A stretch of DNA of 64,000 bases from a virus. Taxonomy: Duplodnaviria; Heunggongvirae; Uroviricota; Caudoviricetes. The notes below the pieces were generated by a model, which was given only the letters and a program-made list of their open reading frames with translations, was not told the DNA's origin and searched no databases. Position numbers and translations under genes: made by a program. The stretch is taken from positions 1 to 64,000 of IMG/VR virus record IMGVR_UViG_3300031853_000008; one strand, written 5' to 3'. This document shows, piece after piece, positions 4,248 through 64,000 of this stretch (position 1 is the first letter of the stretch; each line of letters begins with the position of its first letter).

Positions 4248-4338
4248 TAGGGATGCCCGGACTCGAACCGGGATCACACCTATCTTCAGACGACTAGTAG
4301 TGTTTCACGTCCATCTCTACCTGTTGAGCTACATCCCC
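4248..4338 (-). tRNA. tRNA-like gene, 91 nt; canonical acceptor stem (GGGGATG/CATCCCT), D arm and T arm (CCCGG-TTCGAGT-CCGGG), but the anticodon stem GGACG/CGTCT encloses a 15-nt loop; isotype undetermined
   Basis: Folded by hand from the reverse complement. Length is in the type II range. The loop contains CTACTAG. Confidence 0.4.
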
Positions 4339-13717: not shown

Positions 13718-14465
13718 CATTTTATCTTGTGTCGCCACAGGCACTGACTATATCTTCTACCTTCCAGTAGCCTTCCGCTTCGGGGCGGTGTCCATCTCCG
13801 CCCCTACTCCCTTACATTCATCAGGGATAGTCGATACACTTTACATATACTCAAAGTTGTAATTATAGTGATTAGTCTTTTTGTCACCCTTTAATATAGA
13901 AGTAATTGTTTTCCTGTTTAATCCAAGTTGATTCGCGCATTCTCTGATGCTAGAGAATTCTTTTATTTCATTTGTATCTTTTGAAGTTGCCCTAATTGGG
14001 CATTTTCTATGCTATGGGTACAATCCCATGTCGTAAGCTTCTTGCGTATTGTATGCGTTAGTACACCATTCCAAATTTTCAATTGAATTATTTAATTTAT
14101 TCCCATCTTTATGATTTATCATTGGCAGAACATCAGGATTCGGAATAAATGTTTCTGCTATTAATCGATGCAATCGTATGTATTTTTTCTTTTTATTTAT
14201 CCGAAAACTTGTCATGTAATAGCCTAGGGAATCAATCCACCTACTTAACTTATGGAAACTTCCGTTCTTTAGCTTTTTATATGCATACTAGCTATCAACA
14301 TAAATATTAGGATATTTAGTTTCTTTCATTGTGGTCTCCTTTTCCACAACATCTGAGTATATGTCTTAGCACGGTCTCATCTTATTTCAAAGACCTAACC
14401 GTTAGCCCTTTCGGACACCCTTGGACAAGGTTCAAAAGGTTTTAGATGAGCTGTAGTTTACGCTT
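13718..14465 (-). other. group I intron in nrdD carrying an HNH homing endonuclease ORF
   Basis: Exon 1 ends in U and the intron ends in G. 3' core has R-like CGACTAT, a GGGGCGG..CCGCCCC hairpin (P8-like) and S-like GAAGATATAGTC. Splicing restores the conserved NrdD sequence. Confidence 0.6.
13841..14215 (-). CDS. HNH homing endonuclease (intron-encoded) with one in-frame TAG at 14012..14014
   Basis: HRLIAETFIPNP..NHKDGNKLNN HNH motif. After the TAG the same frame continues into the conserved NUMOD-like C-terminus (IKEFSSIRECANQLGLNRKTI) and ends at TAA. Confidence 0.6.
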
Positions 14466-15695
14466 ACCCATCGTTGATACATAAGTTCTGGGGTCATTCC
14501 TGTCATACCCCGCATTAACACTCCAATCTACATTACAATAGTTTGGATATAACCGCTTTGCCGTTGATTTAAGTGCAAGCCTATAAAGATCATAGTTCGG
14601 ATCTCCCGGCTTGCGATTTACCCCTTTCATACACTGAAAAATCCCGCATGGAAAAATAGGAGTCCGATGAAGAGCGCCGATTCCTTCAATAGAAACATCA
14701 AGAAGGGCTTTCGTTACCATTCTCCCTTCTGGCAAGGTGCATGTTCCGTAATTTACAGATGTAAATGGTAATTGGTTTCCAGATCTACTTTGAAGGGTAT
14801 TTAAATTATGGTACATCCCTTCAACCGCCTGATATGTTTCCTTTCGCGTCATATCCATAGCGTATTTATACGCTTTGTCATGGCTTCGATAAAAAGCATC
14901 ATCTATTCTTTTATCAATATCAAAGAATGCGTCTTCTAATCGAACTCTTTGTTCAATATATTGTATTCCATCTTTGAAATGCTTCCAGAACGATTTACGA
15001 ACATATGGCACCATAGTCCAATCAATATGCGATGCCGAGCAACCCCCGAATTCTTGCAAACTTTGGAGCTGGAATAGAACTGCAACAAGCTGAAAAGCAG
15101 TGTTAATGCTTTGAGCTGGCCTTACATCAGTTTGTCTAGTGTTAAATCCTTTTGCGAGGAGATCATCAAAAGGAATAGTCAAACAATTGTGCATTCCCAC
15201 CGCGTAAGCATCAAGATCGTGTATATAAATCTCATTATTCAGATGATTATTACGAGACATCTCACTCATACAATAATCAAGAGCATACTGTTTCATTAAC
15301 GTAGAACTTGCCTCGCCTCTTCTCCCCCCAAAACTCTTTTCATCAACATTCGCATTTTGATTCTGCACATTGCTTGCATCAATCTTTTCTGCGATTGTTC
15401 TCATCATTCGACTGTTTTTTTCTCTGGCAAGCCTTCTGTTTTCTCTATAAATAACAAATGCTTTTGCTACATCTTTACGGTTGCTTGACATCAACTTATT
15501 TTCAATAATGTCTTGAATATCTTCAACAGACATATCTTTTCCGCTATCGGAAATTAGCTTGGATATTTCAGTGGCCTTATCCCTCGTATACTTCGTCGTT
15601 TCCCCATCAACTTCTGTAAAAGCCTTGATAATCGCGTCCTTCACTTTTTGTCGATCAAACTCAACTACTCTTCCGTCACGTTTCTTTACTTTCAT
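14466..15695 (-). CDS. nrdD: anaerobic ribonucleoside-triphosphate reductase NrdD, exon 1
   Basis: Starts MKVKKRDGRVVEFD (ATP-cone). RBS AGGAAG. Confidence 0.7.
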
Positions 15696-17366: not shown

Positions 17367-17886
17367 TTTTATAGTTCTCAGATCCTATGAATCCGCAACA
17401 TCTCATTTCCGGGCAAAATCCTCTGTATTCACATTCCGGCACCATACAATCGGCAAGTTCAGGCTCGACCGTGCGGACAGCCTCTACAACCGCCCTCCAA
17501 GCCCCTCTCGTCTCGTTTGCGGCCTGACTGCATAACCTCTTCCTGCTTATATTAATAAGCGCCTGTGCGTTCGCTAGGAGTGTCAGACAGACGCTTGCGT
17601 TCTGTGGGAGGTTATTTCTATCTATTCCAGTTCTATCGGTTCTCTCTGTTGAGACGTATGGAGTCACCCCGATGTGGTGGCGCACTAGATGCATTGCCAC
17701 CCAGTAAGGAATATCATGGATTCTTATCGTCAACTCGATATACCTTATAGGAGAATGCTCTGCTCTAAGTATCTTACTCTTCCATGTAGAGGAAGGATAC
17801 TTTCCTGTTTCCTTCCCCACGGTATTCATGGCGGCGTTTTTCACTTCCTGCCAATGGTCTTGATAGTTCAAAATCTCTACGTTCAT
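17320..17886 (-). CDS. thyX: flavin-dependent thymidylate synthase ThyX-like (short)
   Basis: AEHSPIRYIELTIRI ... RHHIGVTPYVSTER resembles the ThyX signature. Confidence 0.5.
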   Translation of the reverse strand: MNVEILNYQDHWQEVKNAAMNTVGKETGKYPSSTWKSKILRAEHSPIRYIELTIRIHDIPYWVAMHLVRHHIGVTPYVSTERTDRTGIDRNNLPQNASVCLTLLANAQALINISRKRLCSQAANETRGAWRAVVEAVRTVEPELADCMVPECEYRGFCPEMRCCGFIGSENYKNETEDYRNGFKNRET

Positions 17887-19922: not shown

Positions 19923-20187
19923 CCTTGCTACCCTCGGTTTCCCGATATTTATTAGGGGAGTAGACTATACCATTATCTCAATGAGATACCCATTGGTAGT
20001 CGTTGCAAGCTTTCCATTTAAGGACTATCTCTCAGGATTATCAAATCCTCAATCTTGTTACCATACTGTGGTGATTAGCCACACCGCGCTTCAGTTTCCT
20101 TTGCGTTTGGTAATTGAGGCTCTAATGACTTCCCCTGATATTCTGGGTTATTCAATACGGATCGCTCCGTAAGGCGACTATAAGTTA
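19923..20187 (-). other. group I intron (265 nt, no ORF) in dnaE
   Basis: Begins with TAA directly after exon 1 ...SLPD (last nt U) and ends in G. Contains GACTAC / P8 hairpin / TATAGTCTAC (P7-like). Removal restores SLPD-IDMN. Confidence 0.5.
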
Positions 20188-21498
20188 ATCGGGCAATGAT
20201 CTTGTTTTTAATATACGAACTTCGCTAAGAAAACGATCTGGGTAGAGTTTTACAGGAGATGTAAAACGGTCAACACTAGAAAATCCTAACAAAGAATTAA
20301 TGTAATACGATACCGCACTTCCTCTTCCTGTCTTCGTAATAACCCCGCCGTATTCTTTGCCGCGCTTAACCAACTCATAATCCAATAAGAAATAATCTGA
20401 CATATGAGTATTTATTACAGCGTTTAACTCATACTGAATGCCATCCTCGTATTCCTTCCATCTTGATGGATCAACGTGCTGCTTTTCTTTATCCCATGCA
20501 TCATAAATAATCGACTTTAACTTATTATCTTTCCATTCCTGTGACTTCCCTGGATACAGAGTTGGCAGCTTGATATCTTTCCCAAATGTGATATCATCAA
20601 AAGTTAAGATGATATCCGATGCATCAAGCATTTCATCTATCTCAGCTTCATTAAAAACACCCTGTTCGATTAATCTCTGCTTCGCCGTCTCTCGGTCGGG
20701 GTAATCCATGTACCACCCGACTTCATCCTCGTCATAAGTAAATCCGCGCCCCTCAAGATAATTATCTCTCTCAACGCTATCGGATTCATATATGTAGTGG
20801 CTGTCTAATCCGACAATCCATTTAATTCCATACTTATAATGTAACTCTTTTATGTGTTTATTAATATCTTTCTGTCTGTCTGTATTATGGCACTGGGTTT
20901 CCAAATAGAAACTGTCCCCAAAGTGTTTCCACAGCTTCATCGTAATATCATCAATGTCTTCGTACTGCCAGTACTTCACACAGGCCGTGGTTACCATCAC
21001 ATCTTCCGGCTTCAGTTGCTCTAACAACTCAAGATCAACTCTTGCCTGTCCGTAATATCCAGTGATATTTGCTTCGGAGAGGATACTATTTATCTCTCGC
21101 CGCCCCTGTTCATTCCGGGCCAGTAAGATAATGTGGCAGTTCGCCCTGTCTTTGCGGTACTTGGTTTCCGTGTTCCCCTTCTTATCGGTAACAGTATAAG
21201 GATATTCCTTTTGTCTGTCTTTTACCCAATAAGCTTCTGCTCCAAATACAAATTTTTGTTTTTGTTTATTATATTGTTCTTCCGTAATGTCGCCAATATC
21301 TAATCGAGCCTTAAGCTTTTGATTGAAATCGACGACGCTGTCATAATAAACATAATAGTTTGATTGAAAACCATGCTCTACAGTGCTAACTACTTGGCTT
21401 CCGACCTCAACATTTCTCTGGATGTACTTTTCAGGGGCAGTAGCGCAATCAATTACACAGCAGTTAGAAAACCAACTGTGTTTATGATAATTCTGCAT
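20188..21498 (-). CDS. dnaE: DNA polymerase III alpha (DnaE-like), exon 1 (PHP domain and first palm segment)
   Basis: HKHSWFSNCCVID..VEHG PHP motifs and GRGSAVSYYINS palm segment. Start 21498 with GGAGG RBS. Confidence 0.65.
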
Positions 21499-22261
21499 CC
21501 TCGTCCTCCATCTCTTTGTATAGGCAATCATTTCTAAAAGAACACAACCTATTACACCATAGGAACGATTTCTTAGCGGCAAATTCCTGGTCATTCTCGA
21601 TAAGATTTATTGTTTCAAGCACCCAGTTTTTGGTTTCTTCGCATTCATCTTCTCTATAGGGGATCTCTGTAATTGCTCCCTTATCAAGAAAATGATTCCA
21701 CGCAAGAGATTGTGCAGAAATACCGAATTTCTGTTTGACCCCCATAGCGTAAATGTAAAGTTGCTTTTTGTAATCGTTAAACTGATCAAGTTTACTCTTC
21801 AGCGGGGTGCCGTCTTTCTTTAGAAAATGACCACTACTCTTATGATCCACTATAATAGTCTCACCATTATTTTTATCCTCGATAATTAAATCAACACGCC
21901 CAATTATTTCATTTCCGTTCAGTTCAAACTCAACTGGGATCTCCGTCCCTAAAACTTTAAAATTTGCAAAAAACTTATCGATATCAAGAGTATCCAGGTA
22001 ATCGATAAATTGATCCTGTTTCGCAAGTACTTTTTCGATATCCGTATCTTCCGGGACTTCGGCTAAGAGATTATCAAGAGTATTCTGTTTTGCTTGCTCT
22101 ATTGTTTCTTTCCCAGAAAAAAGCATCTATAATTCATTATGGCAAAAGCTCCCGACAGCAGCCTGAAAGTTCTTTTCCTCGTACTGTTGTTCAACCTTAT
22201 GTAAATAATAGGCATATGGGCATTGTCTGTATTGGCTTAAACTACTGAAAGAATACTGCAT
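21482..22261 (-). CDS. PD-(D/E)XK Cas4/RecB-like exonuclease with in-frame TAG at 22127..22129
   Basis: N-terminus MQYSFSSLSQYRQCPYAY (44 aa, strong AAGGAGG RBS), then TAG followed immediately by ATG, then the D..EDK nuclease core and C-terminal CxxCxxxxxC. The N- and C-terminal Cys form the expected 4-Cys cluster only if TAG is read through. Confidence 0.55.
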
Positions 22262-26043: not shown

Positions 26044-26061
26044 GAGATTCTCCTTATATAG

Positions 26062-26133
26062 TCACCCGGTGGGGATTCGAACCCCAGTCTTGAGGGTTAG
26101 GGCCTCTCGTCTTGACCACTCGACTACCGGGCG
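26062..26133 (-). tRNA. amber suppressor tRNA, anticodon CUA (reads UAG); charged amino acid unknown
   Basis: 72-nt cloverleaf: acceptor CGCCCGG/CCGGGTG, U8A9, D arm GTCG..GAC, T arm TGGGG-TTCGAAT-CCCCA, discriminator A. Anticodon arm GAGG/CCTC with loop CCCTAAC puts CTA at positions 34-36. Position 33 is C rather than U. Confidence 0.6.
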
Positions 26134-26750: not shown

Positions 26751-28274
26751 TTACACAATATCCTTTACGGCATCTTCTATTGGCTTATATCTATCTGTAT
26801 TCAACTCATTAAGAAGAGCTTCATACGGATCAATCTTTGCCGTCATAAACATCTTCAGCAGATTCACAGAGAACCCAGAACAGAGAACCATGCCGAGATC
26901 ATTCTCCTGCATCGGAATCGTCTTATCCATGTTAAGCGACAGATTCCAGAAAACAATCTTTGGCAGCTTATAGCCATGACTCTGATATTCGTCGCTGATT
27001 TCTTCGAATAGAGTCTTGTTATATCCAAAACTTGTCCAATGGCTTCTTCCATCCCACTGCATATCACTGCAAATCACAATCATCTTCGGCATATCGTCCT
27101 GCGTCATATGATTCTCGATTGCGGTGTTCAGAATCAGTTTCATTGTCTTATAGATGTCTGTATTGGAACATTCATCTTCTGCATAAGTCTTAGCAACTTT
27201 ATCTGCCAGGGTCTTACAATTGCGGAGATCGATAAACTTCGGATTGGCGGAAAATGTAATGAATCTCCCCCGCCAAGCCTTAGAGTTATGATCCGCCATG
27301 TAAATAGCGAGTGCTGTGGCAACATCAATAGGCCTGTAGCTTCCACAGTTAGATTCCATTGACCCGCTACCATCTCTGACGACAAGAGCATCGGAGAGCA
27401 TAATATTCTTCTGGCTCTTCCATAATTCTTCCAGTACTGGATCTTCTTTCACATTATCGCGCTCCCAGTAACAACGACCACCAATATACTGCTTGACAAT
27501 CTCATGCGGCTGAAGAGCCTTTGCGTTAATCTTTGTATCGCCTTTAACAAGAGAGTCAATATATTCCTGTCTTCTTGCTTGATCGTGACGTGCGAACGCA
27601 TCTTTGTAATTGAGATTTGCCTTGGACGGAACCTTTGCGTAATCAATATCGCTCCAGTTCCCGCAAGACATCTTCTGCTCCACTACATCAAGGTACGTTC
27701 TCAGCCCTGTAAGAAGTTTTCTGTACTGGCGGGGCTGAATCCCCCACTCATCCATCGTCTTTCTCGCAAGTCTTCTTGTGTTCTTTGACGAAGTGTTTTC
27801 TGATGGAAGCCATTTGCTCAAAAGGGATACAGACTTTCCTTCTTTTGCATTTCTCACATCTTCAAGAGCCTGGTTGAGCATGAGCCTTGCCGTATCTTTC
27901 CAGACTGGAGTATTCTCTAGTGTATAAAGGCTATCCCATCTGTTATATTCTGAGACGAACTTAATCAGCTTTTTCACAACGTCTGGCTTCTGATCCGCCA
28001 GCCACGCAAGACAAGCCCGGAAGACTTTACGCTCTCCCACCCCCTCACGGATATCTCCAACATAGAAGAGATACTTTACCGCAATAAGTGGGTTCTCGAA
28101 ATAAACCTTTGCAAATTCATCCTTGATATCACTCTCGTCCATACTCCTCATAGAAGAAAGCGCGAAGTTGAAATCAAGAAGGTTCTTTCCTGATGTTTTG
28201 TATGCAACGGCACCGTTCGTGGTAAGCGTTTTCTCGTTGTTAAGTTCTTTCTTCATTCCATCATAAAAATTCAT
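26751..28274 (-). CDS. rsr: Ro60/Rsr-like ribonucleoprotein (TROVE + von Willebrand A domains)
   Basis: N-terminal TTNGAVAYKTSGKNLLDFNF TROVE-like region. vWA MIDAS VVRDGSGSM. Start MNFYDG with AAAGGA RBS. Confidence 0.6.
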   Translation of the reverse strand: MNFYDGMKKELNNEKTLTTNGAVAYKTSGKNLLDFNFALSSMRSMDESDIKDEFAKVYFENPLIAVKYLFYVGDIREGVGERKVFRACLAWLADQKPDVVKKLIKFVSEYNRWDSLYTLENTPVWKDTARLMLNQALEDVRNAKEGKSVSLLSKWLPSENTSSKNTRRLARKTMDEWGIQPRQYRKLLTGLRTYLDVVEQKMSCGNWSDIDYAKVPSKANLNYKDAFARHDQARRQEYIDSLVKGDTKINAKALQPHEIVKQYIGGRCYWERDNVKEDPVLEELWKSQKNIMLSDALVVRDGSGSMESNCGSYRPIDVATALAIYMADHNSKAWRGRFITFSANPKFIDLRNCKTLADKVAKTYAEDECSNTDIYKTMKLILNTAIENHMTQDDMPKMIVICSDMQWDGRSHWTSFGYNKTLFEEISDEYQSHGYKLPKIVFWNLSLNMDKTIPMQENDLGMVLCSGFSVNLLKMFMTAKIDPYEALLNELNTDRYKPIEDAVKDIV

Positions 28275-28297: not shown

Positions 28298-28410
28298 GAG
28301 GGCAGTGTGGGTTCGAACCACAAACATCGCCTTTCAAGAGGAAAATGTTTTGCTGTTAGCACCTATACAAGATGCGTATTTTCGTGCTCTACCATTGAGC
28401 TACTGCCCTC
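28298..28410 (-). ncRNA. Y-RNA-like tRNA mimic
   Basis: Perfect acceptor stem with G-1 (gAGGGCAG/CTGCCCT), U8A9, D arm GCTC-AATGGTA-GAGC, T arm TGTGG-TTCGAAC-CCACA. In place of an anticodon arm there is about 63 nt of extra helices. Lies 23 nt upstream of rsr. Confidence 0.5.
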
Positions 28411-45059: not shown

Positions 45060-45943
45060 AGTTGTTTTCCTTCCTTTAAAATACCGTGTAGGTAAGTTTG
45101 CTACAGCAAGCCTTGCTTTTTATCTCTAGTAAAAGTATCCCTTGCTAGTACATCGACCACAATGATTAAGTCATTACAATCGACATTTTGAACTACTTCG
45201 GGGAGGTTTCTGAACTGTCGGGACGAGTTGCATTAACTCTTCTTCTTAGGGCTGTATTATTCAGTTCACTCAACTTGTTCATGGTACTTGTTCAAGTTGT
45301 AAGGATCAACTTTTGTTGACAATGCTATATTAATATACCTAAAAATTATATGCAAGTATACAAAGGTTTACATAGGGATAGTTCTAACTCCCATGATGAC
45401 TCAAGGGCAGTGATCCGGCTTAAGTGCTATTTCCACACACCACCCATGTAAATTCTATTCATTCCCCCTTCCCCCCTTCTCTCGCCTTCCCCTCAGTTGC
45501 TCCTTTACGAAGATAAGATAAGTTTTTTAGATCCTTGATATAACCTAAAACAGAGTATTTCAGTTTGTTATAGGTTTTGCCTGTACGAAAAAATCTTTTT
45601 AGTTATAGGTTCAGCCTATATCAGGAAAAATGTAGCTATTGAAAATGTAGCTGTTATATTAACTTACTGGAGTTCACTAGTTTGCTTTAGACATATATTA
45701 GACAAGATATTAATTTCTACCTATAACAAGAAAAGAAGTAAATGTGAACGACAGTAAGTTAATTCCCCATTCTGTTGCTCACCAATATATGAACTAAAAG
45801 CAGTGGGGGGCTAGATATGAAGTAAGAAATTAATTTCATCTACACAGAAAACAGAGATATGTGGATGCGAAGAAATATCTATAGAGATTTAGCCTGTACC
45901 AAAAAAATGATAGGAATGGAATTTTAGGTATTACATAAAATTA

Positions 45944-45993
45944 AGACCCCGGAGAGACCCCGGTGGTCTCGAAGGGGGTCGTCCATTTTTTTC
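45944..45993 (+). terminator. long GC hairpin followed by T7 inside the control region (terminator-like)
   Basis: AAGACCCCGGAGAGACCCCGGTGGTCTCGAAGGGGGTCGTCC followed by ATTTTTTT. Confidence 0.3.
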
Positions 45994-46204
45994 TGTACAG
46001 GCTATACCCGAAGGGTATTCTACTACGGGGACTAAATACAGATAATTCGGTAGATTTTTAGTTCAGCCACTATATTCAGGTATATATTGTGATCTCCTGC
46101 GTTGCTTCCCTTGTGCCTTCGCTGGGGGCTACGGCACGGTCAGCAACTTAGTATAATATATATATTTAGAGGGATCACTCCGTATCTTGGCTGTCACTTT
46201 TTTG

Positions 46205-46290
46205 TCACCAAAGTGGTGACAACTTTTAGAGCAAGCCTGGAGCGGGGTTTCAGAGAATTTTGTCACCGTTTTTCTCCATTTTGGTGACAA
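46205..46290. promoter_or_regulatory. GTCACC..GGTGAC inverted repeats (operator- or origin-like)
   Basis: Perfect palindrome GTCACCAAAGTGGTGAC at 46205-46222, and a second GTCACC-N15-GGTGAC at 46262-46290. Confidence 0.3.
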
Positions 46291-46502
46291 AATGGATTCA
46301 AGATTGGCTTAAATAGAGAGGTTTTCGCACCCATCTCTTATAATATATAGAAGAGAAAAGTCGGTAAGAAGAGCCTGAACGAATTGCTAGTTTTGGGGAC
46401 CTATCGGAGGTAAAACACCCCCCAATCCCCCACGCCGTTATTTTTTCGAAGTTTCGTGGATATTTTCGTAATTATTTTTGCTCACTTTTCAAAACATAGC
46501 TA

Positions 46503-51206: not shown

Positions 51207-51404
51207 ATGAGAATCAGAATTTATCCACTACATCATTACAATGATGACCTTTATGATGAGTGGTCGGAGAAAGCCGATGGAATCACTGACTACACAATCA
51301 ACAAGAATAATTTTGTTGTGCGTAGAGGCGACCAGTGGATGGGGATTTACAACCTTGATGACATTTCAAAGATTATTGTATCGGATGAAAAGGTGAATGA
51401 ATGA
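51207..51404 (+). CDS. hypothetical protein (66 aa)
   Basis: ORF trimmed to MRIRIYPL. Confidence 0.35.
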   Translation: MRIRIYPLHHYNDDLYDEWSEKADGITDYTINKNNFVVRRGDQWMGIYNLDDISKIIVSDEKVNE

Positions 51405-51496
51405 GTGAATACGGACTAAAGATACGAAACTACTCTGCTGCTCCGCTGTATATGTACAATCAGGGGGTGCGGGATCATTGTGACTACAAATAGGCG

Positions 51497-53158
51497 ATGT
51501 TGTGTAATTCTTTATTTCTTACGTTTCTGAAGAACAATGGACTTAAAAATTATAAGGATATTTCTACCAGGGACGTGATATGTATTGATTTCGGGTTTGG
51601 GACGAGATCGTACGATGAAGAGTACTCTCATATCAAAAAAATGCTTCAAAGTGCCGAAGAATCTGGGAATGATGAAAAAATCACAAAAATGAAGGATTTA
51701 TTGGCAAAAACAATCAAAAATAAGTCGAAATTTAAGAAAATTTCGAAAGAAAACCTTAGAATTTTGATGTATGAAAACGGCATTGATGTGACCTATAAGG
51801 GGTTTGGGGATGACTCAGATGAAAAGATTCACTATAAGATGTTGGAGAGAAATGCTTCCCATGCCAAAGTTGGGACTGTAATCTTCATCAATTCTGAACT
51901 TTATGATAAAGCCTATAACTGGTTAAGTATGGGAATCAAGTTGCCGAAGAAAAAGGCTAAAATCGTTGAGATGTCGGCATATATGCCATTGACAACTTCG
52001 ACGATAGTCGGCACCGTTCACATTCCTGTACAGGATATTTTAATCTTAAAGGATTATGATTCGTTCTATAAAACAGTTGCGGATGTGATTAAACCTAAAA
52101 AAGGCGATAACGGCAAGATGATGTGCTACGTGTCAAGAGAGGATACGGAAGTAAAGAATACTCTGTGGGACGGGATGGCACTTATTGAGTCCTCGATTCT
52201 GCCCGGATACTGTAATGGAATGGCGTTGCTGAGAAACCATTTTTTCAAGGCTTGTGCGTTTAAGACTAATATCCAGCTGTTCTTCCATGATTACTGCGAC
52301 AAACACGGAATTGACTATGAAACTTATCAGATTACCGATATGTTTGGATACAGGCATTATTTAAAAGATATCAAAATGATAACGACAGATAATGCTATTA
52401 AGTGGAAGAAATTTATCTCTCTTATGGGGAACAGCCCTACTGAGGCGTATGGCTACTGGTGCGAAAAAGTTAGAGCGGATGGGGAAGAATGGGGAATCGT
52501 AAAGACAGACCACCCAAGCAAACTTAGTTATATAGGGAACTATAACAGAATGAGTTACCAGATGCTCAATACTCTCCCGACCACTTATGAAGATGTAGGC
52601 AAAATAGCTTCTACAAGCATTAAATATGTAGAAGATATGAAAAACAACAATGATATTTACGAGAAGTTTCTGCGAGAGAATGCCACGGCAGTCAATCATT
52701 ATGAGATGTTGGCTGACCTATACAAACAGAATAAAGAGTTCGCAAGAAGCGTTATGTGGAAACGAGACAAAGCGGATATCATCCGGCATTATGTCAACAA
52801 TCTTCGCAAAGGGAAGATATTCGTTAGAGGCGATAATCTGACGCTTTGTGGAAATCCATATGCTCTACTGCTTTACAGCATGGGGGAAGCTCCTGAGAAT
52901 GACAAAACGCTGTTACATGAGGATGGAACTATACAGTGTTACACGAAACAGTTTGAAGATGGTGAGTATTTGTGTGCTTTTAGATCCCCACAGAATTCAG
53001 CAAACAATATAGCATATTTTCATAACCACTACTCTCCCGAAATGGAGAAGTATTTTGATTTTAGTAAAAATATAATTGCTGTTAATTGTATTGGGACTGA
53101 TATTCAGCCTCGGATGAACGGCTCAACAATCGGGGCCAGTTGTGCGGAAACGCACTTC
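51497..53158 (+). CDS. large protein of unknown function, exon 1 (554 aa)
   Basis: ORF ends at TAA, the first codon of a group I intron (the same arrangement as in dnaE). Confidence 0.5.
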
Positions 53159-53436
53159 TAAAAATATTCGGTGAAAATTGGAAAGCTGACAATGCCAGCC
53201 AATCAATTACCAAGCCAGTGAATATCAGAAAGTAGCTGGAAGGTTTAGAGACTAGGGGTTGAGGAGATACCCAATAACACCCCCACGAGTGCCGAATACC
53301 TTAACACATAATGGTGAAGGTAATGAGATAGTCCGATACTCTTAGGAAACTGAGAGCTGCCGTGGATAAAGAGCCACGGACATAACAATATGGCGATTTT
53401 GACAGCGATTTTGTTTTTGCAACTAACCAACAAGAA
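53159..53436 (+). other. group I intron A (3' boundary approximate)
   Basis: R element GGTTTAGAGACTA at 53243-53255, S element GAGATAGTCCGA at 53325-53336, P9-like hairpin CCGTGG..CCACGG. Confidence 0.55.
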
Positions 53437-53700
53437 ATGGTAAAGGGTTCAAAGATTGCATATAGAGATTTCCCAACGGTAGTGAATGCTATCCCTGAAA
53501 GTGGGTTGACATATGACAATACTCCAGATTCGTATGCACTTATGGATAATCGCTTTGCCAAGAGCCAACGTGCGATAGGGGAATCATCGAATTTGGCGAT
53601 GTTGGCAGTAACATATTATTTAACAAACATTGCGAATAATATAAACAATGAACAAACCAAACAATTGTATGATATTTCAGTAATTCTAGCAGTATTGGCT
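53437..53700 (+). CDS. large protein of unknown function, exon 2 (about 88 aa; 5' boundary lies between 53386 and 53440)
   Basis: ORF bracketed by two group I introns. Ends at TAA, which begins intron B. Confidence 0.4.
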
Positions 53701-54061
53701 TAATTAACTGGGCCGGTCGCATAGAAATATGCCCCATAAAATATCCTGTGAATTTCTGGAAAGCTAAGAGTAAATGACTATGAATAAAGAACCTATGAAG
53801 ATGCCATTAGTAAACCGATATGAAAAATATAAATTGTAGTTATTTACTTATGCTAATCAGAAGCCAAGCCACTAAATCCTGTAGAAGTAAGTGGAAGGTT
53901 CAGAGACTAATCGGTGAGAAGGGGATCAATATCCGAACACGAGTGCAGGACACCTAAAAGATATTCTCAAGGTGATGATATAGTCCGATCTATAGGGAAA
54001 CCTATTGAAGCAACAGATAAATAGCTGTTGATGTAACGACAAGCAGTGCAGCATAGATAGT
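53701..54061 (+). other. group I intron B (3' boundary approximate)
   Basis: Q-like AATCCTGTAG, exact R element GGTTCAGAGACTAA at 53898-53910, S element GATATAGTCCGA at 53976-53988. Confidence 0.55.
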
Positions 54062-55143: not shown

Positions 55144-55212
55144 AACTAATTTGCTTGTGACAGGAAGTGTTGAAATATGCGCTTCCTGTTTCTTTTGAAG
55201 AGAGGTACTCAG

Positions 55213-55398
55213 ATGGTTCATATTACAAAAGATGAAGCATTTTATCTTAGAAAATGCGGTCGTGGAAAGGATATTCATATGTCTTCGAGAACCCACCAGA
55301 ATAGAAAAAGATATTGGGCAACCGAGTCGTATAAGACAATGAAATATCTTGACGGATACAGGGAAGAACAGCTTCGGGCAGGACAGACAAATGATTAA
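55213..55398 (+). CDS. hypothetical basic protein (62 aa)
   Basis: ORF. Confidence 0.3.
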   Translation: MVHITKDEAFYLRKCGRGKDIHMSSRTHQNRKRYWATESYKTMKYLDGYREEQLRAGQTND

Positions 55399-55522
55399 AT
55401 TCTATGACACGAATGCCATACTGAAGTTACAGGAAAAGATATTCGATGAAGAATTCTGGATTTCTACTGTAACACTTGAAGAGCTTTAGAATATAAAGAC
55501 CCAGAAAAATAAATCAGAGGAC

Positions 55523-56569
55523 GTGAAGTATGCCGCTAGAAAGATGGTAAGACTTCTTAATTTGAATTATGGAAAATACTGGAAAATCGTAAATAATGAT
55601 AGTCATTATGAGTTCGGTGCGGACGAGAGGATATGTAAAGATGCGGATCGTGTGAATAAAACGAACGGCCCCATCCAGTTTGTGACATATGATCTTTGTT
55701 GCCGAGTAATTGCGGATGGCAAATACGATTTGAATCCATATTATCCTGATAATAGTGGGGAGTCTATTTATAAAGGTTATAAAGAATTTGTCGGGTCTAC
55801 GAATGATATTAACACTGCTATCGAGAATATTAATCTTGATGATTGGTATATGAATGAATATCTGATTGCAGTGCCGACAGATGGTGGAAAGCCGTTTGAA
55901 CTCCGATATAATGGAGAGGAATTTGTTCCACTTCGCCTCCCATCATCGAAATTTATTAAAGGGAAAAATGCTCTTCAGAGATGTGCGTTGGATATGCTTG
56001 CAAACCCGAACATCACGATATGCGGTGTGCTTGGAAATTATGGTTCGGGTAAATCTTATCTTACGATGAGAATGGGGCTTTACTCTGTTAGAGAAAAAGG
56101 ATACCAGTCTAAAATCGTTGGAGTAAGAGAATACCGCGGAGAAGGCGAAGAAATTGGGTTTCTTCCTGGAGAAAAGGAAGCGAAGTTGAATGACTTCTTT
56201 CTGCCACTAGCACAGCAGCTTGATGGCGGGGAATTCGAACTCGAAAGCATGAAGCAACGCGGGGAGATTGAAATCAATACCCCATTTTTTATGAAAGGTA
56301 CTACATATGATAATTCTATCATACTTGTAGATGAAGCCGAAGATTTGAAAGAGAAACAGATAAAACTTATTGGAACGAGAGTTGGTCAGAATGGGCGGAT
56401 CTTCTTTAGCGGAGATTATAAACAGTCCTTGATCTGCGATAATGAGAATAATGCATTGGTGCGGACTTGCAACACCCTTAAGGGCAAGCCTGAATTCGCA
56501 TGCATTTATCTCGATGACGATGTTCGTTCCGATACAAGCAAGATTTTTGCGACATTATTTGAGGATTAA
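55523..56569 (+). CDS. phoH: PhoH-like ATPase with N-terminal extension
   Basis: Walker A GNYGSGKSY. Conserved GFLPGEKEAKL..FLPL PhoH segment. Confidence 0.7.
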   Translation: MKYAARKMVRLLNLNYGKYWKIVNNDSHYEFGADERICKDADRVNKTNGPIQFVTYDLCCRVIADGKYDLNPYYPDNSGESIYKGYKEFVGSTNDINTAIENINLDDWYMNEYLIAVPTDGGKPFELRYNGEEFVPLRLPSSKFIKGKNALQRCALDMLANPNITICGVLGNYGSGKSYLTMRMGLYSVREKGYQSKIVGVREYRGEGEEIGFLPGEKEAKLNDFFLPLAQQLDGGEFELESMKQRGEIEINTPFFMKGTTYDNSIILVDEAEDLKEKQIKLIGTRVGQNGRIFFSGDYKQSLICDNENNALVRTCNTLKGKPEFACIYLDDDVRSDTSKIFATLFED

Positions 56570-56786: not shown

Positions 56787-56817
56787 TTAAATACAAATAA
56801 AAAAGGGGGAATCAACC

Positions 56818-57471
56818 TTGGATATTGAAACTTTTACACTTCCTCTTATTGGAAATACAAAGTAGAGTGAAATTCCGTCTCCTGAGGAGTATACATATTG
56901 GAAACTTCGTAGCAACCGGGTATTCACAATTGATTATGAAATTGATCAAGATTACAGTCTTATTGAACTCAGTAAAGCTATCATGCAACTGAATTTTGAG
57001 GAAAGGGATATTCCGAAGGAAGAATTAAAACCGATTTATATTCTTATCCATACTTATGGGGGTGATATTGATCAGGCTTTCTATTTTGCGGATATGCTTA
57101 TTAGTTCTAGAATCCCTATCGTGACGGTAGGTCTTGGAGCTGTAATGTCGGCTGGGTTTATCATTTTTCTTGGTGGGCAGAGACGTTATGCCTTTAAGCA
57201 TTGTCAGATGCTTGTCCATAAAGGAAGTGCAGGATTTTCCGGCACCGCTCAGGAAATGGAAGACTTTCAAGCAAATTATAAGAAACAGCTGAATGACATG
57301 AGAACGTATATTCTTGAGAGAACAGATATCGATGAAAAGGTCTTTAACAGGAACAGGAACAAAGATTGGTATCTGCGGCCTAATCAACTGACTGAATATC
57401 ATATTGTTGATAAGATTATTGACAATTTTGATGACATCACTGATGACAAGGAGGGAAAAGAAGATGCTTAA
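56818..57471 (+). CDS. ClpP-family serine protease (likely prohead protease) with in-frame TAG at 56863..56865
   Basis: TTG start with AAAGGGGGA RBS. After the TAG the frame encodes the ClpP N-terminal strand region (RVFTIDYEIDQDYSLIELSKAI) before the conserved LIHTYGG..GLGAVMSAG..HKGSAG core. Confidence 0.55.
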
Positions 57472-57655
57472 GGTTAAAGACTCACAGCCGAAACCATCGA
57501 CCCCGACTAGAACGATTACGGTTAATACAGTGAACCTTAATAATGGGGTTCTTGAAGATGAAGACGGTCCCATTATTGACAGGATTATTGATTCTCTCCC
57601 TGAGAACGCCACGGATTTTACTGTAAAGGTAATGATTCCGCTTAATGAGACATAA
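57464..57655 (+). CDS. hypothetical protein (63 aa)
   Basis: ATG overlaps the end of the ClpP-like gene. Confidence 0.4.
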   Translation: MLKVKDSQPKPSTPTRTITVNTVNLNNGVLEDEDGPIIDRIIDSLPENATDFTVKVMIPLNET

Positions 57656-57758
57656 GGGGGATAAACCATTGGGCTATTCATATGATAAGAGAGACGATTA
57701 GAATGAACTCCAGTACATTTGGCGGCTCTGCCATTCAAAGGATGACGGATTAATTGAC

Positions 57759-58874
57759 ATGACGTGGGTCGAACTTGCGGATGTCATGAACCGTAATCTC
57801 CGGGAAGACGGTCAGTATTGGTCGGAGTCAGCTTATCGGAAGAAATATCAAGAAGCGAAAGCTTTTTATGATGAAGTATTTTCTAAGCAGACGAGTGATG
57901 ATGAGTCCTCTTCTCTCATAAACGAGAGACATGAACTTGAAAAGGAAACCGTGCGAGTTCGTGACGAGAGGAATGAGCTTCGCCGACTGCTTAGAGAACA
58001 AGCCCGGAATGAATCCTTTATAGATCAGCTGGTAAGGATGATTAAAGAGCATACCACTCCAGAAATGGATACAGGAGATATTCCTGTAATAAAAGATGAA
58101 GGGATTAATGCTATGCTCGTCCCTATCACAGATATCCATACTGGGATGAATTCCGATAATTACTGGAATTATTTTGATGACGATGTGCTTGAAGCGAGAT
58201 TGAGTGATTATCTTACAAAGGTTGTAGAAATAGGGAAAAGGCATAATGTGTCTTACGTTCATGTAGTAATTTCTGAAGTTATTTCTGGATATATCCACCC
58301 GACTCTTCGCATCGAATCGAATAAAGATGTTATAGAACAGTTTCTAACTATCATGGATTATCTTACTCAGTTTCTGATCAAACTGAATAAAGAATTCCCC
58401 CATATTTATGTATATTGCGTTCCGGGCAATCACAGTCGGATGACTCCAAACAAGAAGGAAAGCGTTGAACATGAGAATATTGATATTCTTGCTATTCCTA
58501 TGTTGTCTGCGAGATTACAGAATTATCATGGAATCGAGTTTGCAACGAAAGATAATGAGATCGATTCTTCAATAATCAAGTTCTGGGTCAACGACAGACT
58601 TGTATTGGCCGTGCATGGAGATAAAGATAATCCTGATAACATGGTAGAAAAGCTTACTATGATGGTAGGTATTCAGCCGGATATTATCCTTTGTGGGCAT
58701 AGACACACAAATGGGGTAAAAACGGTTTATGATACAAAGATTATTCAATCTGGGTCATTATCGGGTACAGACCAGTATTGTGTTGATCACAGATTGAAGA
58801 ATCGTCCAGAGCAATTCGTTGCCGTCGTTGGAAGCGATGGCGTGGATTGTCTTTATGATGTCAAGTTTGATTAA
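57759..58874 (+). CDS. SbcD/Mre11-like metallophosphoesterase with N-terminal coiled coil
   Basis: ITDIHTG, CVPGNHS and GHRH phosphoesterase motifs. Confidence 0.6.
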   Translation: MTWVELADVMNRNLREDGQYWSESAYRKKYQEAKAFYDEVFSKQTSDDESSSLINERHELEKETVRVRDERNELRRLLREQARNESFIDQLVRMIKEHTTPEMDTGDIPVIKDEGINAMLVPITDIHTGMNSDNYWNYFDDDVLEARLSDYLTKVVEIGKRHNVSYVHVVISEVISGYIHPTLRIESNKDVIEQFLTIMDYLTQFLIKLNKEFPHIYVYCVPGNHSRMTPNKKESVEHENIDILAIPMLSARLQNYHGIEFATKDNEIDSSIIKFWVNDRLVLAVHGDKDNPDNMVEKLTMMVGIQPDIILCGHRHTNGVKTVYDTKIIQSGSLSGTDQYCVDHRLKNRPEQFVAVVGSDGVDCLYDVKFD

Positions 58875-58997: not shown

Positions 58998-60052
58998 ATG
59001 GCTTTTTTGAAAAAAGTCCTGCCATAGCAGGAAATGAAAAGGCTTACCCTCAAGCCCCTAAGAGAACAATATACTGCTTTGGGGTAGGCTTATAACAAAA
59101 TTATGAATTATGAACTTCCTTATTGTGTCAAATGTGGGACATTTGGAAGTGCTACTCTCTTCTATCAAGATAGCAGATTTGCGAATGGGTATTTCCCTAT
59201 TTGCAAAAAATGTATTATGAAAATGGTATAGAACAGATAGAAGGATGATGATGAACCACACGAAACGAAGGAATCCGTTGCTAAAGTATTGAAAATGATG
59301 GATCTTCCGTTCTTGGAAGACCTTTATGATTCTTGTGTAAAGGCTATTGAGGACGGAACTGAAAAGCGAGGGTCTAAATCTTCGTTTATTAATTATGTGT
59401 CCGCTATCCGTTCTCTCCCACAGTATCATCGTTTAACGTGGAAAGATTCTGATTATATTTCCCAAGAGAAGGAAATTGAGAACGACGCTGATAATGAGGA
59501 TATTCTTGAAAAAGCGAGAGAACATTTTGGAACAACTTATACTAATCAAGATTTGAAATTCCTTTAGACTCAATATGAAGACTGGACTGCCAGATATGCC
59601 TGTGAAAGTAAAGCACAGTAGATTTTGTTCCAGAGGGTATGCTTTATCCAATTAGCACTGGACAAGGCTCAAAAATCTGGGAAAGAAACGAAAGATCTTG
59701 ATAAACAGCTTCAGGATGTGTTGACATCGCTTCAGATTAAACCTAATCAGAGTAACTCTAATGCTCTTACGGAAGCAAAGACGTTTAGCCAGCTTATTGA
59801 GAAGTGGGAAGCTTAGAAACCTCTCCCTGAAATATAGGATGATTTTAAGGATGTTGATCATGTTGGGAGATATATTGATGTGTTCTTTAAAGGACATCTA
59901 TCCAAAATGATGGGGCTTAAGAATGCGTTTTCTTCTATGTATGATAAATTCATGAAAAAATATACTGTTAAGAAGCCGGAATATGATGAGGATACCGACT
60001 CTGAAGAATTGTTTGATAAAATATTTGGCAATCCTGTGGAGAATAGGTCATG
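58998..60052 (+). CDS. late protein with N-terminal zinc ribbon (candidate small terminase subunit); 8 in-frame TAG codons
   Basis: ATG with TTAAGGAGGG RBS. A single frame runs 58998 to 60052. Every interruption is TAG and the final stop is TGA. Confidence 0.45.
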
Positions 60053-60115
60053 AGTGACGCTAAGAAATCTGTTAAATAGATAGAGAAAACCAAATAGCGT
60101 AAAATAATGTAGACG

Positions 60116-61813
60116 GTGGCTTGGAGAGCAAGCTACTATCGTGAAAATCCTCATCGATTCGTTTCTGAAGTATTATTCCCAGATGGAACTTTTAAGTTGA
60201 AATTGTTTCAAAAGATTCTTCTTTGGGCAATGATGCACTACAACTTTATTATGTACTTGGCGGCGCGCGGCCAGGGGAAAACGATGATAACTGCGTTGTT
60301 TTGTGTCGTGAGATGTATCTTATATCCGGGGACAAAGATAATTGTAGTAAGCGGTACGTTGAAACAAGCGAATGAATTGCTGTTAAAGATACAAGATGAA
60401 TTTATGCCGAAATCACCATTCCTATGTAATGAAATATAGTCTTGTAAAATTGGGCAGAATGACGCATCAATTTATTTTCGAGGAAATTCATGGATTAAAA
60501 CTCGCACAAGCACTTAGAACTCTCGTTCCGCAAGAGCAAATATTCTTATAGCGGATGAGTTTCGCATGATAGATTAGAAGATATTGAACACAGTTCTTCG
60601 AAAGTTTCTGACAAGCCCTCGTGAACCTGGATATTTGAATAACCCAGAATATACTCATTTAAAGGAACGCAATAAGGAAATTTATATGAGTTCTGCGTGG
60701 TTTAAGTCATCTTGGGCATATGAAAAGGCTATTGGATATACTAAGAATTTTTTCGATGATACAAAGAAATATTTTATCTGCGGGCTTCCATATCAGTTAT
60801 CTATTATGGAGGGCTTGCTTATGAAAGAACAAGTGCAGGATGAGATGAGCTAGCCGGATTGGAATGATTTATTGCAGTCGATGTAGATGGAATGCACCTG
60901 GATAGGTGATGTTGGAGATAATTTATTTCATTTTGATGATTTCAATAATAGACGGGTATTGAAGAGTTCTTTTCTTCCATTGAAATATTATAATGATAAT
61001 AGAAAAGTGCCATAGCCTCATTCAAAAGGGAAAAGGGTATTATCTCTTGATGTAGCTTTAATGAAATCATCAAAGTCTAAAAAAAATGATGCCTCAGCAT
61101 TATTCATTAACGATCTTACACCATCTACTAATACGAGTTATCATTCAAATATCGTTTATGCTGATACATTCGAGGGGTTAACAACTGACTAGCTTGGCTT
61201 AATTGTGATGAGATATTTTTATAAATATAAATGTACTGATTTAGTTATAGATACCAACGGTATCGGTTTAGGTGTCTATGACTTTTTATGTCGTGATCAA
61301 TATGACCCATCGACTGGGGAAACCTATCAAGCTATGACTTGTGCTAATGATCCAGATATGGCTGAGAGATGTCGTGTATAGGGGGCTAACAAGGTTATTT
61401 GGAGTGTAAAAGCAACCGCTTCATTTAACAATGATATTACTATTTTGCTCCGTAATGCTATATTAAATGGACGGATTAGCTTTCTTATATCTTAGGATGA
61501 TGCGGATGAGCCACTCAAAGATAAGCTTAAAGGATATGCAAAGCTGACCCCAACGGAACAAGCATTGTTAAAGAAACCTTACGCTCAGACAACTATGACA
61601 GAGTATGAACTCATAAAACTCAACCACTAGGTAAAGAATGGCAATATTAAAGTTTATTAGAGTTCTGGAATGCGCAAGGATCGCTACAGTTCATTATCGT
61701 ATAATTATTGGTGTGCGACTCAGCTTGAACTTAAGCTACGACCTAAAGAGTCACACGACAAACTTATCAGTTACTTTCCGATAAGGAAAGCAAGAGTTTA
61801 TAAATCATTTTAA
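60116..61813 (+). CDS. terL: terminase large subunit; 11 in-frame TAG codons
   Basis: GTG start. Walker A AARGQGKT, Walker B ILIADEF, nuclease-domain motif VIDTNGIGLGVYD, C-terminal KDRYSSL. One frame throughout, with interrupting stops only TAG (60437, 60515, 60575, 60851, 60884, 61013, 61184, 61379, 61493, 61628, 61658). Terminates at TAA. Confidence 0.75.
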
Positions 61814-61825
61814 GGAGGTGCATGA

Positions 61826-63376
61826 ATGCCACAAAATAGTGATAAGGTGTCAACTGCACCTACTAAGAAACAGCCTACTTCTGCGGAACTTCGCAAATGG
61901 TATGCGAATTATTCAAAGAAACAATAGAATTTTGATTCTATGAAAAATGCTTTGAAACGGCTTACTGATATTACGAAAAGTAGAAAAGAAAGAACTATTA
62001 ATACATTCTCAAAAGAGGATCTCAGAACTTATCTGAGAAATATAAGTTCCAGTGAAAAGCAGTTAAGAAATCTTTCGAGATATCTGTACTACCGTTCTCA
62101 TAGTTATTATAGAATCATTAACTATTATGCCAATATGTTTGACCTAAAAGCAAGGTCGGTTATTCCTACATATGATTTCACAAAAAATAAACAGGATGCG
62201 AAGAAGGTCACAAAACAGTTCTATACGACTTTGACTTATCTAGATCAAATGAACCTTCAGTATGAGTTCCTTAAAATATATCTCACTTGTTATAGGTAGG
62301 ATGTATTCTATGGTTGCCTGTACTGGGATGATACCGACTTCTTTATTCTCCCGTTGGACCCGGATTTTTGTAAAATTTCTGGCGTTTATGGGACAGGAGA
62401 CTTTTCATTCGCTTTCGACTTCTCCTATTTCAGAAATAGACAGGACGTTCTCGAATACTGGGGTGAGCCATTCCAATCTATGTATAACACATATGAGAAT
62501 GATACCACCAACAATAGGTGGCAGGACTTCCCGGAAGAATACTCTGTTTGCTTGAAAGCAAGGGCATAGGATTGGCAGACCGTAGTGCCCCCGTTCTCAG
62601 GGCTTTTTAATGAGATTATCAATCTTGAGGATCTGAAAGATATTCAGGCGGTGGCAGATGAGTCGCAGATTTACAAGCTTCTCTGGTTCGAACTTAAAAC
62701 CATCACAGGGTCGAAAGATGTTAATGATTGGGCGGTTGATCCAGACCTTGCTTTGGATTATTACGATAAACTTCAGAATGAGATTCCTGAGTGGGCTGAT
62801 GTTGCGATGGTTCCTGGGGAACTCAAGTCTATCGAGTTCAATCAAGACCAGGCGGATGATACAAACAAGGTATAGAAAGCTACTGAAAGTGTATTCAATA
62901 CTTCCGGCGGAGCGCAGATTCTTAATGCTGCTTCTATCTCTGGGACAACAGCTTTTACTGCCGCGATTGCGTCTGATACTGAATTTGCCGTTTCTCTCCT
63001 GTTGCCACAGACTTAGGCTTGGGTGAATCGTATGCTTTCGTATAAGATGAATAACCCCGCAAAGGTGAAATTCTTTGAGATAAGCATCTATACGAGAGAT
63101 AAGTTAAGAGATGCTCTTCTCAAGTCGAGTCAGTTCGGGCTTCCAAATAAACTTGCCATTAATACCCTGTTTGGATATTCCGAGAAAGATACAATGGCGA
63201 TGAATTTCCTTGAAGAGAATTGCTTGCAAGTCAGCACTAAATTTACTCCACTCCAGTCTTCCTATACAAGGAGTGCGGATGTTGACACAGATTCTATTAC
63301 AGGGGGAAGACCATCTAGCACATAGATAACAGATGACGGTGAAGCAAGCAAAGATAAGAGGGATAATGCGAAATGA
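61826..63376 (+). CDS. portal/connector-like late protein; 6 in-frame TAG codons
   Basis: AAGGAGG RBS. Four listed ORFs (61940, 62354, 62585, 63023) plus flanks are all in frame 2, joined by TAG only. Terminates at TGA. Confidence 0.5.
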
Positions 63377-63549: not shown

Positions 63550-63574
63550 TTCCGTCAGGAAGGAGAATGTCACC

Positions 63575-64000
63575 GTGAAGAGGATTCTTACTCTCTAGGA
63601 TTTAGTGGCTCTTTGTAGCTAGAATAAATTTTCTACATTTGATTCTGAAAAAGCTGGATTTCAGCTTTGTGTTCATGTCCCCGCGGTTTTCGAAAATACA
63701 GAATCTGACGAGCATACTCTGTATGGATATGTCAAACTTATGCATACGGGAAAAAACCGAAATGGTTCTAATCTAACAGAGGAGGCGGCAAAAAACTGCC
63801 TTTCTTCTATTGCATATAAGCCACTTCTTGCAGATTTTTGTGAAATTGATGGCGTAGAGGACTTTACTTCTCACGCTTTTCATGAAGATTAGGATGGAAA
63901 TATCGTATATGATGAGCGTCAAGTCGGAGCATTTACTGCTGACCCACCGGAATTAAAGGAAGATGGCGAGCATCCAGATCGCAAATATGTTTTTGCGAAA
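63575..64000 (+). CDS. late protein, 3' partial, at least 3 in-frame TAG codons
   Basis: GTG start with AGGAGA RBS. The frame continues to the window end through TAG codons only. Confidence 0.4.

Follow-up and report, generated by a model that had tools for sequence, protein, structure and literature searches.

Probable decoding of TAG as glutamate, with read-through of a ClpP-like protease gene, in an SPbeta-like phage known from metagenomes

In the phage represented by the 64,000-nucleotide stretch of DNA analysed here (the window), TAG is a sense codon that is probably decoded as glutamate and not as glutamine, the ClpP-like protease gene being read through its in-frame TAG from a TTG start at 56818, and a tRNA that the phage itself encodes, with anticodon CUA (tRNA(CUA)), is the most likely decoder. 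In the window, at least 13 genes have TAG as a sense codon. The assignment of TAG to Glu is a computational one, drawn from the comparison of aligned protein sequences and from amino-acid composition.

Results

The ClpP-like gene is read from a TTG start through a TAG

An earlier note on this DNA had described a TAG at 56863, 15 codons past a TTG start, in a ClpP-like gene said to need TAG read-through. The sequence is as described, and the elements of the gene are as follows.

56818..57471, plus strand: ClpP-like serine protease gene; 217 codons, TTG start, TAG as codon 16, TAA stop at 57469-57471
56805..56809, plus strand: GGGGG ribosome-binding site, read from the sequence, 8 nt upstream of TTG 56818
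56863..56865, plus strand: TAG within the reading frame of the ClpP-like gene, located N-terminal to the conserved core

The frame reads LDIETFTLPLIGNTK up to the TAG and continues with SEIPSPEEYTYWKLRSNRVFTIDYEID... after it, and between this TAG and an ATG at 56983 the sequence holds no in-frame ATG, GTG or TTG. A database search with the extended protein as query returned several hundred relatives, the best-scoring full-length ones being 201-221 aa long with a query coverage of 86-96%. The 15 codons 5' of the TAG (MDIETFTLPLIGNTK) can be aligned with the N-terminal ends of 23 homologues, which are 201-221 aa long; homologues of 205-211 aa begin at the position of the TTG, and in the 24-sequence alignment Pro9 is at least 90% conserved and the start Met of most homologues lies within a few residues of TTG 56818. 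Homologue P0009 reads MGDLFTFDLPIIGNTK-D-SDIPSPEEYTYW across the TAG position (excerpt FDLPIIGNTK-D-SDIPSPEEYTYW). The need for read-through is thus borne out by the conservation in homologues of both the pre-TAG peptide and the start position. The residues under the TAG itself vary among homologues (D, S, E, A, N), and because this column is variable the Glu reading at the ClpP TAG rests on other genes. In public databases the product is found only as a 162-aa protein from Met 56983, instead of 217 residues.

That the frame past the TAG encodes the genuine ClpP N-terminal region, as had been proposed, is confirmed by PF00574 and by solved ClpP structures, both of which align there. Residues 29-203 of the read-through protein correspond to profile positions 12-181 of 182 (79.7 bits, cutoff 20.2), and in alignment with solved ClpP structures query residue 27 faces ClpP residue 20 at the alignment start. 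The earlier note had allowed for a protein complete from Met 56983; in the ClpP profile alignment this shorter protein covers only positions 44-181 (78.4 bits), with positions 1-43 and ClpP residues ~20-48 lost. As the PF00574 and solved-structure alignments begin upstream, about 30 residues of the conserved core would be missing with this start, and the protein therefore cannot be complete from Met 56983.

Ser111, His134 and Asp183 are invariant in the 24 aligned sequences, and align with the Ser of AAS, the His of MIHQP and the Asp of DRDYYL in the ClpP of 6hwm, which we take to be its catalytic triad. The best PHROG match of the protein is phrog_94, 'head maturation protease' (6.6e-18), and on this sequence evidence a role as prohead (head maturation) protease is plausible. 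The window protein shares with ClpP (MEROPS S14) and with phage head maturation proteases (PF00574; phrog_94) the same full-length domain, the Ser-His-Asp triad and a length of ~200 aa, but its identity to cellular ClpP is only ~20-25%. In contrast to the genes of phage head maturation proteases, which lie between portal and capsid, the window gene belongs to a PhoH-ClpP-YonK-YonJ cluster upstream of the terminase and adjoins neither portal nor capsid genes. It lies three genes upstream of the terminase, separated from it by a 63-aa ORF, a phosphoesterase and a YonG-like gene, and in relatives the PhoH/YonK/YonJ neighbourhood is kept.

In-frame TAG in neighbouring and distant genes

It had also been claimed that the adjacent PhoH and phosphoesterase genes are without TAG, and that a boundary between TAG-free and TAG-containing genes lies at about 56.8 kb. 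These claims were wrong, as the following genes make plain.

51401..53161, plus strand: exon 1 of a YonO-like RNA polymerase candidate; 586 codons, TAG at 51491-51493 (codon 31), homology spanning the TAG, Glu in relatives
55391..56569, plus strand: PIN-PhoH gene; ATG start, one TAG at 55487-55489 (codon 33), Glu in 3/3 relatives
57669..58874, plus strand: YonJ-like metallophosphoesterase gene; TTG start (or ATG 57645), TAG at 57699-57701 (codon 11)
58998..60053, plus strand: YonG-like gene; 8 in-frame TAGs, dense TAG use beginning here (58.99 kb)
60050..61813, plus strand: large terminase gene; 14 in-frame TAGs, 12 of them on Glu-majority columns
61826..63376, plus strand: portal gene; 6 in-frame TAGs
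63551..64000, plus strand: N-terminal part of a YonD-like gene, running off the window; 3 in-frame TAGs, start codon uncertain
21482..22261, minus strand: PD-(D/E)XK-type exonuclease gene; one TAG at 22127-22129 (codon 45; GSFCHNEL-TAG-ML)
13841..14329, minus strand: HNH homing endonuclease gene, inside the split NrdD gene; TAGs at 14288-14290 and 14012-14014

The TAG of the PhoH gene lies within an N-terminal PIN domain that extends across it (MIKFYDTNAIL...VTLEEL-TAG-NIK; Pfam PIN_4, 27.3 bits, cutoff 21.9). For the YonJ-like gene (Pfam YonJ_N in the source record; a match to phrog_284), relatives of ~400 aa align across TAG 57699, with Glu in 11 of 12, and the TTG at 57669 sits behind the same kind of GGGGG site as that of the ClpP-like gene. 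The supposed boundary is contradicted by the TAG at codon 31 of the YonO-like gene at 51401, by the TAGs of the two minus-strand nuclease genes, which are the only convincing TAG-containing genes on that strand, and by dense use that begins only at 58.99 kb. TAG use is instead graded along the late-side plus strand, where four single-TAG genes at 51.4-58.9 kb (YonO-like polymerase, PhoH, ClpP and YonJ-like phosphoesterase), each with a 5'-proximal TAG, are followed from 58.99 kb by the many-TAG packaging and head genes.

Gene calling with TAG read through gave 106 genes, of which 60 stop at TGA, 46 at TAA and none at TAG; about four small genes with a TAG near the end may truly stop there, which would put TAG stops at no more than ~4 of the 106. 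Comparing ORF coverage roughly between the stop-codon reassignments did not tell them apart. The first TAG falls at or before codon 45 in all nine genes examined, and when TAG positions were permuted among the Glu sites of each gene the bias towards the 5' end had a combined p of 0.016 for the nine genes and of 0.008 for the five single-TAG genes. This bias is suggestive only, and would fit either a gate awaiting the tRNA or a design in which early termination is the cheapest failure.

The ClpP-like and YonJ-like genes have an unusual initiation region in common, AAGGGGGA followed by 5-6 bases, CC(A) and TTG (56800-56820 and 57651-57671, plus strand), and in both the TAG comes at most 16 codons past the TTG.

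TAG positions coincide with glutamate in relatives

At 34 TAG sites in 8 genes, the log-likelihood calculated from column frequencies was -38.7 for E, -135.0 for D and -176.5 for Q. Aligned pairwise with four relatives, the TAGs of the window face Glu and then Asp. For one of these comparisons, with relative L008 at 33 sites, substitution frequencies were drawn from the same alignments, and the log-likelihoods were -52.7 for E, -57.5 for D and -79.6 for Q; the 24 TAGs of L008 itself gave -60.7 for Q and -74.6 for E. In 12 of the 14 terminase TAG columns most of the 119 terminase homologues (64-68% identity) have Glu: all 119 do so at residues 268, 279 and 537, 117 at residue 176 and 116 at residue 527. 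The TAG columns pooled over these homologues hold 75% E, 9% K, 7% D and 2% Q. As controls, Glu makes up 65% of the residues opposite the window's Glu codons, and Gln 84% of those opposite its Gln codons. When only conserved terminase columns are considered, TAG occupies 7 of 21 that are Glu-conserved and none of 16 that are Gln-conserved (Fisher p = 0.012). The YonG-like, portal, PhoH, YonJ-like, polymerase and YonD-like genes have the same Glu pattern at their TAGs.

A survey of 83 terminase relatives found 76 without a terminase TAG and six with 5-13 TAGs, all on Gln columns, so that among the surveyed terminases TAGs on Glu columns occur only in the window. These six Gln-type relatives serve as a control of the method, which recovers Gln for them. 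Since TAG stands for Gln in related phages with a terminase of the same family, one phage group would hold two meanings of the codon.

Amino-acid composition leads to the same assignment. The Glu content of the late genes is 5.3% without the TAGs and 7.1% with TAG counted as Glu, compared with 6.9-7.6% elsewhere in the window, whereas TAG counted as Gln would double late-gene Gln to 5.3%, against 2.4-2.8% elsewhere in the window. TAG/GAG or TAG/CAG polymorphism was sought among near-identical strain variants, which had only 2-4 SNPs, none of them at a TAG. The public translation of the terminase (P0121, ENA) has Q at 14/14 TAGs.

The candidate decoder tRNA

26061..26133, minus strand: tRNA with anticodon CUA, presumed TAG decoder; found by ARAGORN, Rfam tRNA 56.9 bits, within the replication module

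The tRNA reads CGCCCGG UA GUCG AGUGGUCA AGAC G AGAGG CCCUAAC CCUCA AGAC UGGGG UUCGAAU CCCCA CCGGGUG A. It has C1-G72, A73, U11-A24, A46, a 4-nt variable loop, an 8-nt D loop and C33. In E. coli the identity elements for GluRS include U11-A24, the 13-22 pair with A46 and the absence of nucleotide 47. The window tRNA keeps U35, A37, U11-A24, A46 and the missing nucleotide 47, all of which are features of the tRNA-Glu identity set, but its 13-22 position is G·A and its acceptor stem starts with C1-G72.

The anticodon loop, CCCUAAC (anticodon 26099-26101, minus strand), has C33, and the Gln-type suppressor of L008 has U33, which is near-universal in tRNAs. The tRNA is identical in a second, independent assembly that differs nearby by a 6-bp indel, and because both assemblies hold the same base, C33 is not an assembly error. 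There are mismatches in the D stem and the anticodon stem, and the minimum-energy fold is not a cloverleaf; the cloverleaf assignment comes from the covariance-model (Rfam) match and not from the thermodynamic fold. Because of C33, the stem mismatches and the non-cloverleaf fold, the efficiency of tRNA(CUA) as a decoder is uncertain.

The D-arm 18-mer of the tRNA occurs in genes for tRNA-Glu (3), tRNA-Asp (2) and tRNA-Val (2) in metagenomes and IMG/VR and, being common to these isotypes, fails as an isotype marker; in genome contigs the 18-mer had one match, which was not a tRNA. The anticodon-arm 17-mer gave 10 chance matches in IMG/VR, none a tRNA, blastn against phage records gave only weak T-arm matches to unrelated isotypes, and ranking the tRNA by similarity to a set of tRNAs from the retrieved loci was uninformative, as the set was biased by the way it was gathered.

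ARAGORN labels any tRNA with a CUA anticodon as pyrrolysine tRNA. The genuine pylT has an unusual tRNA architecture and is accompanied by pyl genes. That identity was rejected, since the window tRNA is an ordinary cloverleaf by Rfam, the TAGs lie on Glu columns, and the window ORFs scanned contain no pyl-type domains. Among window ORFs of at least 300 aa there is no synthetase or release factor; the ~48 kb of the source contig outside the window could hold another suppressor tRNA or a translation factor.

The suppressor tRNA of L008 has A1-U72 and G73 and is located between the YonJ-like and YonG-like genes. This different genomic position suggests that the window tRNA(CUA) and the L008 suppressor were acquired independently. 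Two of the Gln-type relatives carry CUA-anticodon tRNAs of 89-92 nt with inserted sequence (L058:5674-5762 and L060:827-918), and as such the suppressor tRNAs of this phage group are structurally diverse.

Discussion

It is established that phages can recode stop codons, that suppressor tRNAs take part in this and that late genes are favoured (10.1101/2021.08.26.457843; PMC9523058; PMC10607447), and in phages whose code is unlike that of the host Borges et al. saw only TAG to Gln and TGA to Trp (10.1101/2021.08.26.457843). The window phage resembles the code-15 phages (crAss-like, Lak, Garnet/Topaz, phAss-1) in concentrating TAG in structural, packaging and late genes, in leaving early and replication genes largely free of it, in carrying its own CUA-anticodon tRNA, and in the fragmentation or shortening of its genes by standard-code calling; it differs from them in that TAG would mean Glu where theirs means Gln. 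No report of reassignment to Glu in phages was found in the literature searched, coverage of which was incomplete. UAG, together with UAA, is Glu in the nuclear codes of peritrich ciliates (NCBI table 30) and of Blastocrithidia, and to our knowledge UAG as Glu is known only from such eukaryotic nuclear codes. In these organisms too the tRNA anticodon matches the former stop, but theirs are whole-genome cellular codes that include UAA, in contrast to the viral, TAG-only code of the window.

The reading that precedent would favour is ordinary genetic code 15, with TAG as Gln, as crAss-like, Lak and phAss-1-type phages use it and as the public record assumes. TAG to Gln is the sole TAG reassignment reported for phages with a code unlike the host's, and amber suppressor tRNAs are often Gln-charged in E. 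coli (10.1101/2021.08.26.457843); the ENA terminase P0121 has Q at all 14 TAGs, and at portal residue 397 Gln is the majority in relatives. We nevertheless consider code 15 very unlikely for this phage, as its TAGs fall on Glu columns, several of them invariant, and on none of the 16 Gln-conserved terminase columns, as Gln lies ~138 log-likelihood units below Glu over the 34 sites by a method that does yield Gln for six related phages, and as the amino-acid composition fits Glu. Somewhat less improbable, though still unlikely, is an ambiguous or leaky decoding of TAG, whether as a Glu/Gln mixture or as low read-through in competition with release factor 1, in which the single TAGs of the ClpP, PhoH and YonJ-like genes would mainly lower expression. 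The atypical tRNA(CUA), with its C33 and weak stems, is consistent with such leakiness, as are the location of the single TAGs near 5' ends, where abortive products are cheap, and the fact that neither a release-factor inhibitor nor a synthetase was seen among the ORFs scanned. However, without efficient decoding neither the terminase, with its 14 TAGs, nor the YonG-like protein, with 8, could be made at a useful level, and the invariant Glu positions argue for mostly Glu.

For the ClpP-like gene itself, the protein might begin at Met 56983, or the gene might be decaying, with the upstream similarity a remnant and the TAG the real stop of a short upstream ORF. Public calls do give 162 aa, even in a record that otherwise reads through TAG, and the Pfam score is nearly unchanged (79.7 versus 78.4 bits). 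This reading seems to us highly improbable, given the loss of Pfam positions 1-43 and ClpP residues ~20-48, the conservation of the pre-TAG peptide and start position in homologues, the strong ribosome-binding site before TTG 56818, the same architecture in three other genes, and neighbouring genes that are unreadable unless TAG is a sense codon. A ClpP pseudogene was rejected, as the pre-TAG peptide, start position and strong ribosome-binding site are retained, and so was programmed read-through at this one site, since the architecture is shared by three other genes and the neighbours cannot be read without TAG as sense.

With TAG decoded as Glu, the reading that we prefer, translation from TTG 56818 through the TAG at codon 16 would yield a ClpP-family protease complete at 217 residues, its Ser-His-Asp triad intact. 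From what is known of tRNA biology, the host glutamyl-tRNA synthetase (GluRS) would probably charge tRNA(CUA) with Glu. A Bacillota host is likely, because Enterocloster bolteae and Thomasclavelia ramosa are the hosts of isolated phages that have a homologue of the polymerase-like gene. In those Bacillota that form Gln-tRNA by way of a non-discriminating GluRS and the GatCAB amidotransferase, the amidotransferase requires a U1-A72-type end. The C1-G72 pair would be expected to make tRNA(CUA) a poor substrate for GatCAB or GlnRS, and if GatCAB is excluded in this way Glu would therefore remain on the tRNA. Judged by gene content, tRNA(CUA) would be expressed with the replication genes and the TAG-containing genes translated only afterwards. 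The TAG code is probably switched on during infection of a standard-code host, and the 5'-proximal TAGs may act as cheap translational gates.

We put forward only tentatively the wider picture of an SPbeta-like gut or rumen phage family with two meanings of TAG, Gln in most recoded members and Glu here through an independently acquired tRNA, in which the acceptor pair C1-G72 decides the meaning and early TAGs gate the late programme. If this were true, what a codon means would hinge on one acceptor-end base pair, and gates in the YonO-like polymerase, PhoH, ClpP and phosphoesterase genes would make the whole late programme dependent on tRNA(CUA).

The phage reassignments described so far, of TAG to Gln or of TGA to Trp, have been attributed to the readiness with which host GlnRS and TrpRS accept suppressor tRNAs. 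A phage in which TAG is Glu beside relatives of the Gln type would imply a wider set of possible reassignments than has been thought, and codon meaning that can vary between related viruses would offer a natural system for studying how such meaning is set and changes. There are also practical consequences for annotation. Pipelines that apply code 15 would mistranslate the proteins of such phages, with 14 Glu-to-Gln errors in the window terminase, and gene callers still shorten the ClpP, PhoH, YonJ and YonD genes, the public record cutting both the ClpP-like protein (P0001) and the YonD-like gene. The best PHROG matches of the terminase, 15503, 26582 and 24618, are each of 'unknown function', have 230-363 positions and tile its length; they appear to be fragments of TAG-recoded terminases called with the standard code.

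Genome context and minor observations

The window is an exact match to ENA contig k141_938339 (112.8 kb; locus L001), which carries the Pfam families YonV_C, YonJ_N, YonG, YonD_N and YonB in SPbeta order, and by these gene families the phage is SPbeta-like. It shares with the late region of Bacillus phage SPbeta (yonV...yonB, with the YonO polymerase) the same order of Yon families and a YonO-like polymerase candidate, but its sequences are very divergent, the phage is known from metagenomes only, and unlike SPbeta it has a recoded TAG, two group I introns in the polymerase gene and the ClpP-like gene. A megablast search of window positions 55-64 kb against GenBank phages gave no matches, and a search of the literature on SPbeta YonJ, YonG and ClpP found nothing useful.

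The group I introns that split the YonO-like candidate lie at 53114-53356 and 53691-54007 (plus strand; Rfam, 76 and 91 bits), and L008 has an uninterrupted homologue of 872 aa. The first intron falls exactly at a DFDSD metal-binding-like motif, exon 1 ending in ...RMNG and exon 2 beginning with DFDSDF. Phage genes to which the protein is similar carry the annotation 'RNA-dependent RNA polymerase' and are YonO-like, and on sequence grounds the protein may be the late RNA polymerase.

The minus strand from 1 to 45 kb is a replication and nucleotide-metabolism module, with genes for Pol III alpha, a primase-helicase, NrdD, a Sak annealing protein, SSB, dUTPase, a methylase with a restriction enzyme, and integrases. 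NrdD occupies two ORFs, one on each side of the HNH homing endonuclease (12755-15695, minus strand), and Pol III alpha is divided between two ORFs ~270 nt apart (17886-21498, minus strand); these splits are probably further introns or inteins missed by Rfam. At 10016-12108 (minus strand) a C5 cytosine methyltransferase and an NgoFVII-type restriction endonuclease adjoin, forming a complete restriction-modification pair. About 1.4 kb at 45100-46500, where coding strand and GC skew switch, is without a convincing gene; T runs follow several hairpins there, and the segment may serve as a control region or origin. One strong terminator-like hairpin lies at 55159-55190, and promoter-like sites are no commoner than in shuffled sequence, so that transcription units could not be defined from them.

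One of the Gln-type relatives, the 202-kb L057 (IMGVR_UViG_3300031867_000003), shares its JGI sample (3300031867) with a copy of the window phage (L003). Two tRNA-like genes of the window (28298-28409 and 4248-4338, both minus strand) have normal acceptor, D and T arms and an insert of 37-53 nt in place of the anticodon arm, and just downstream of the first comes a DUF2828/DUF7788 gene (26751-28274; phrog_850, 'RNA-binding protein'). If DUF2828 is linked to Ro60/TROVE, these tRNA-like genes may be Y-RNA-like.
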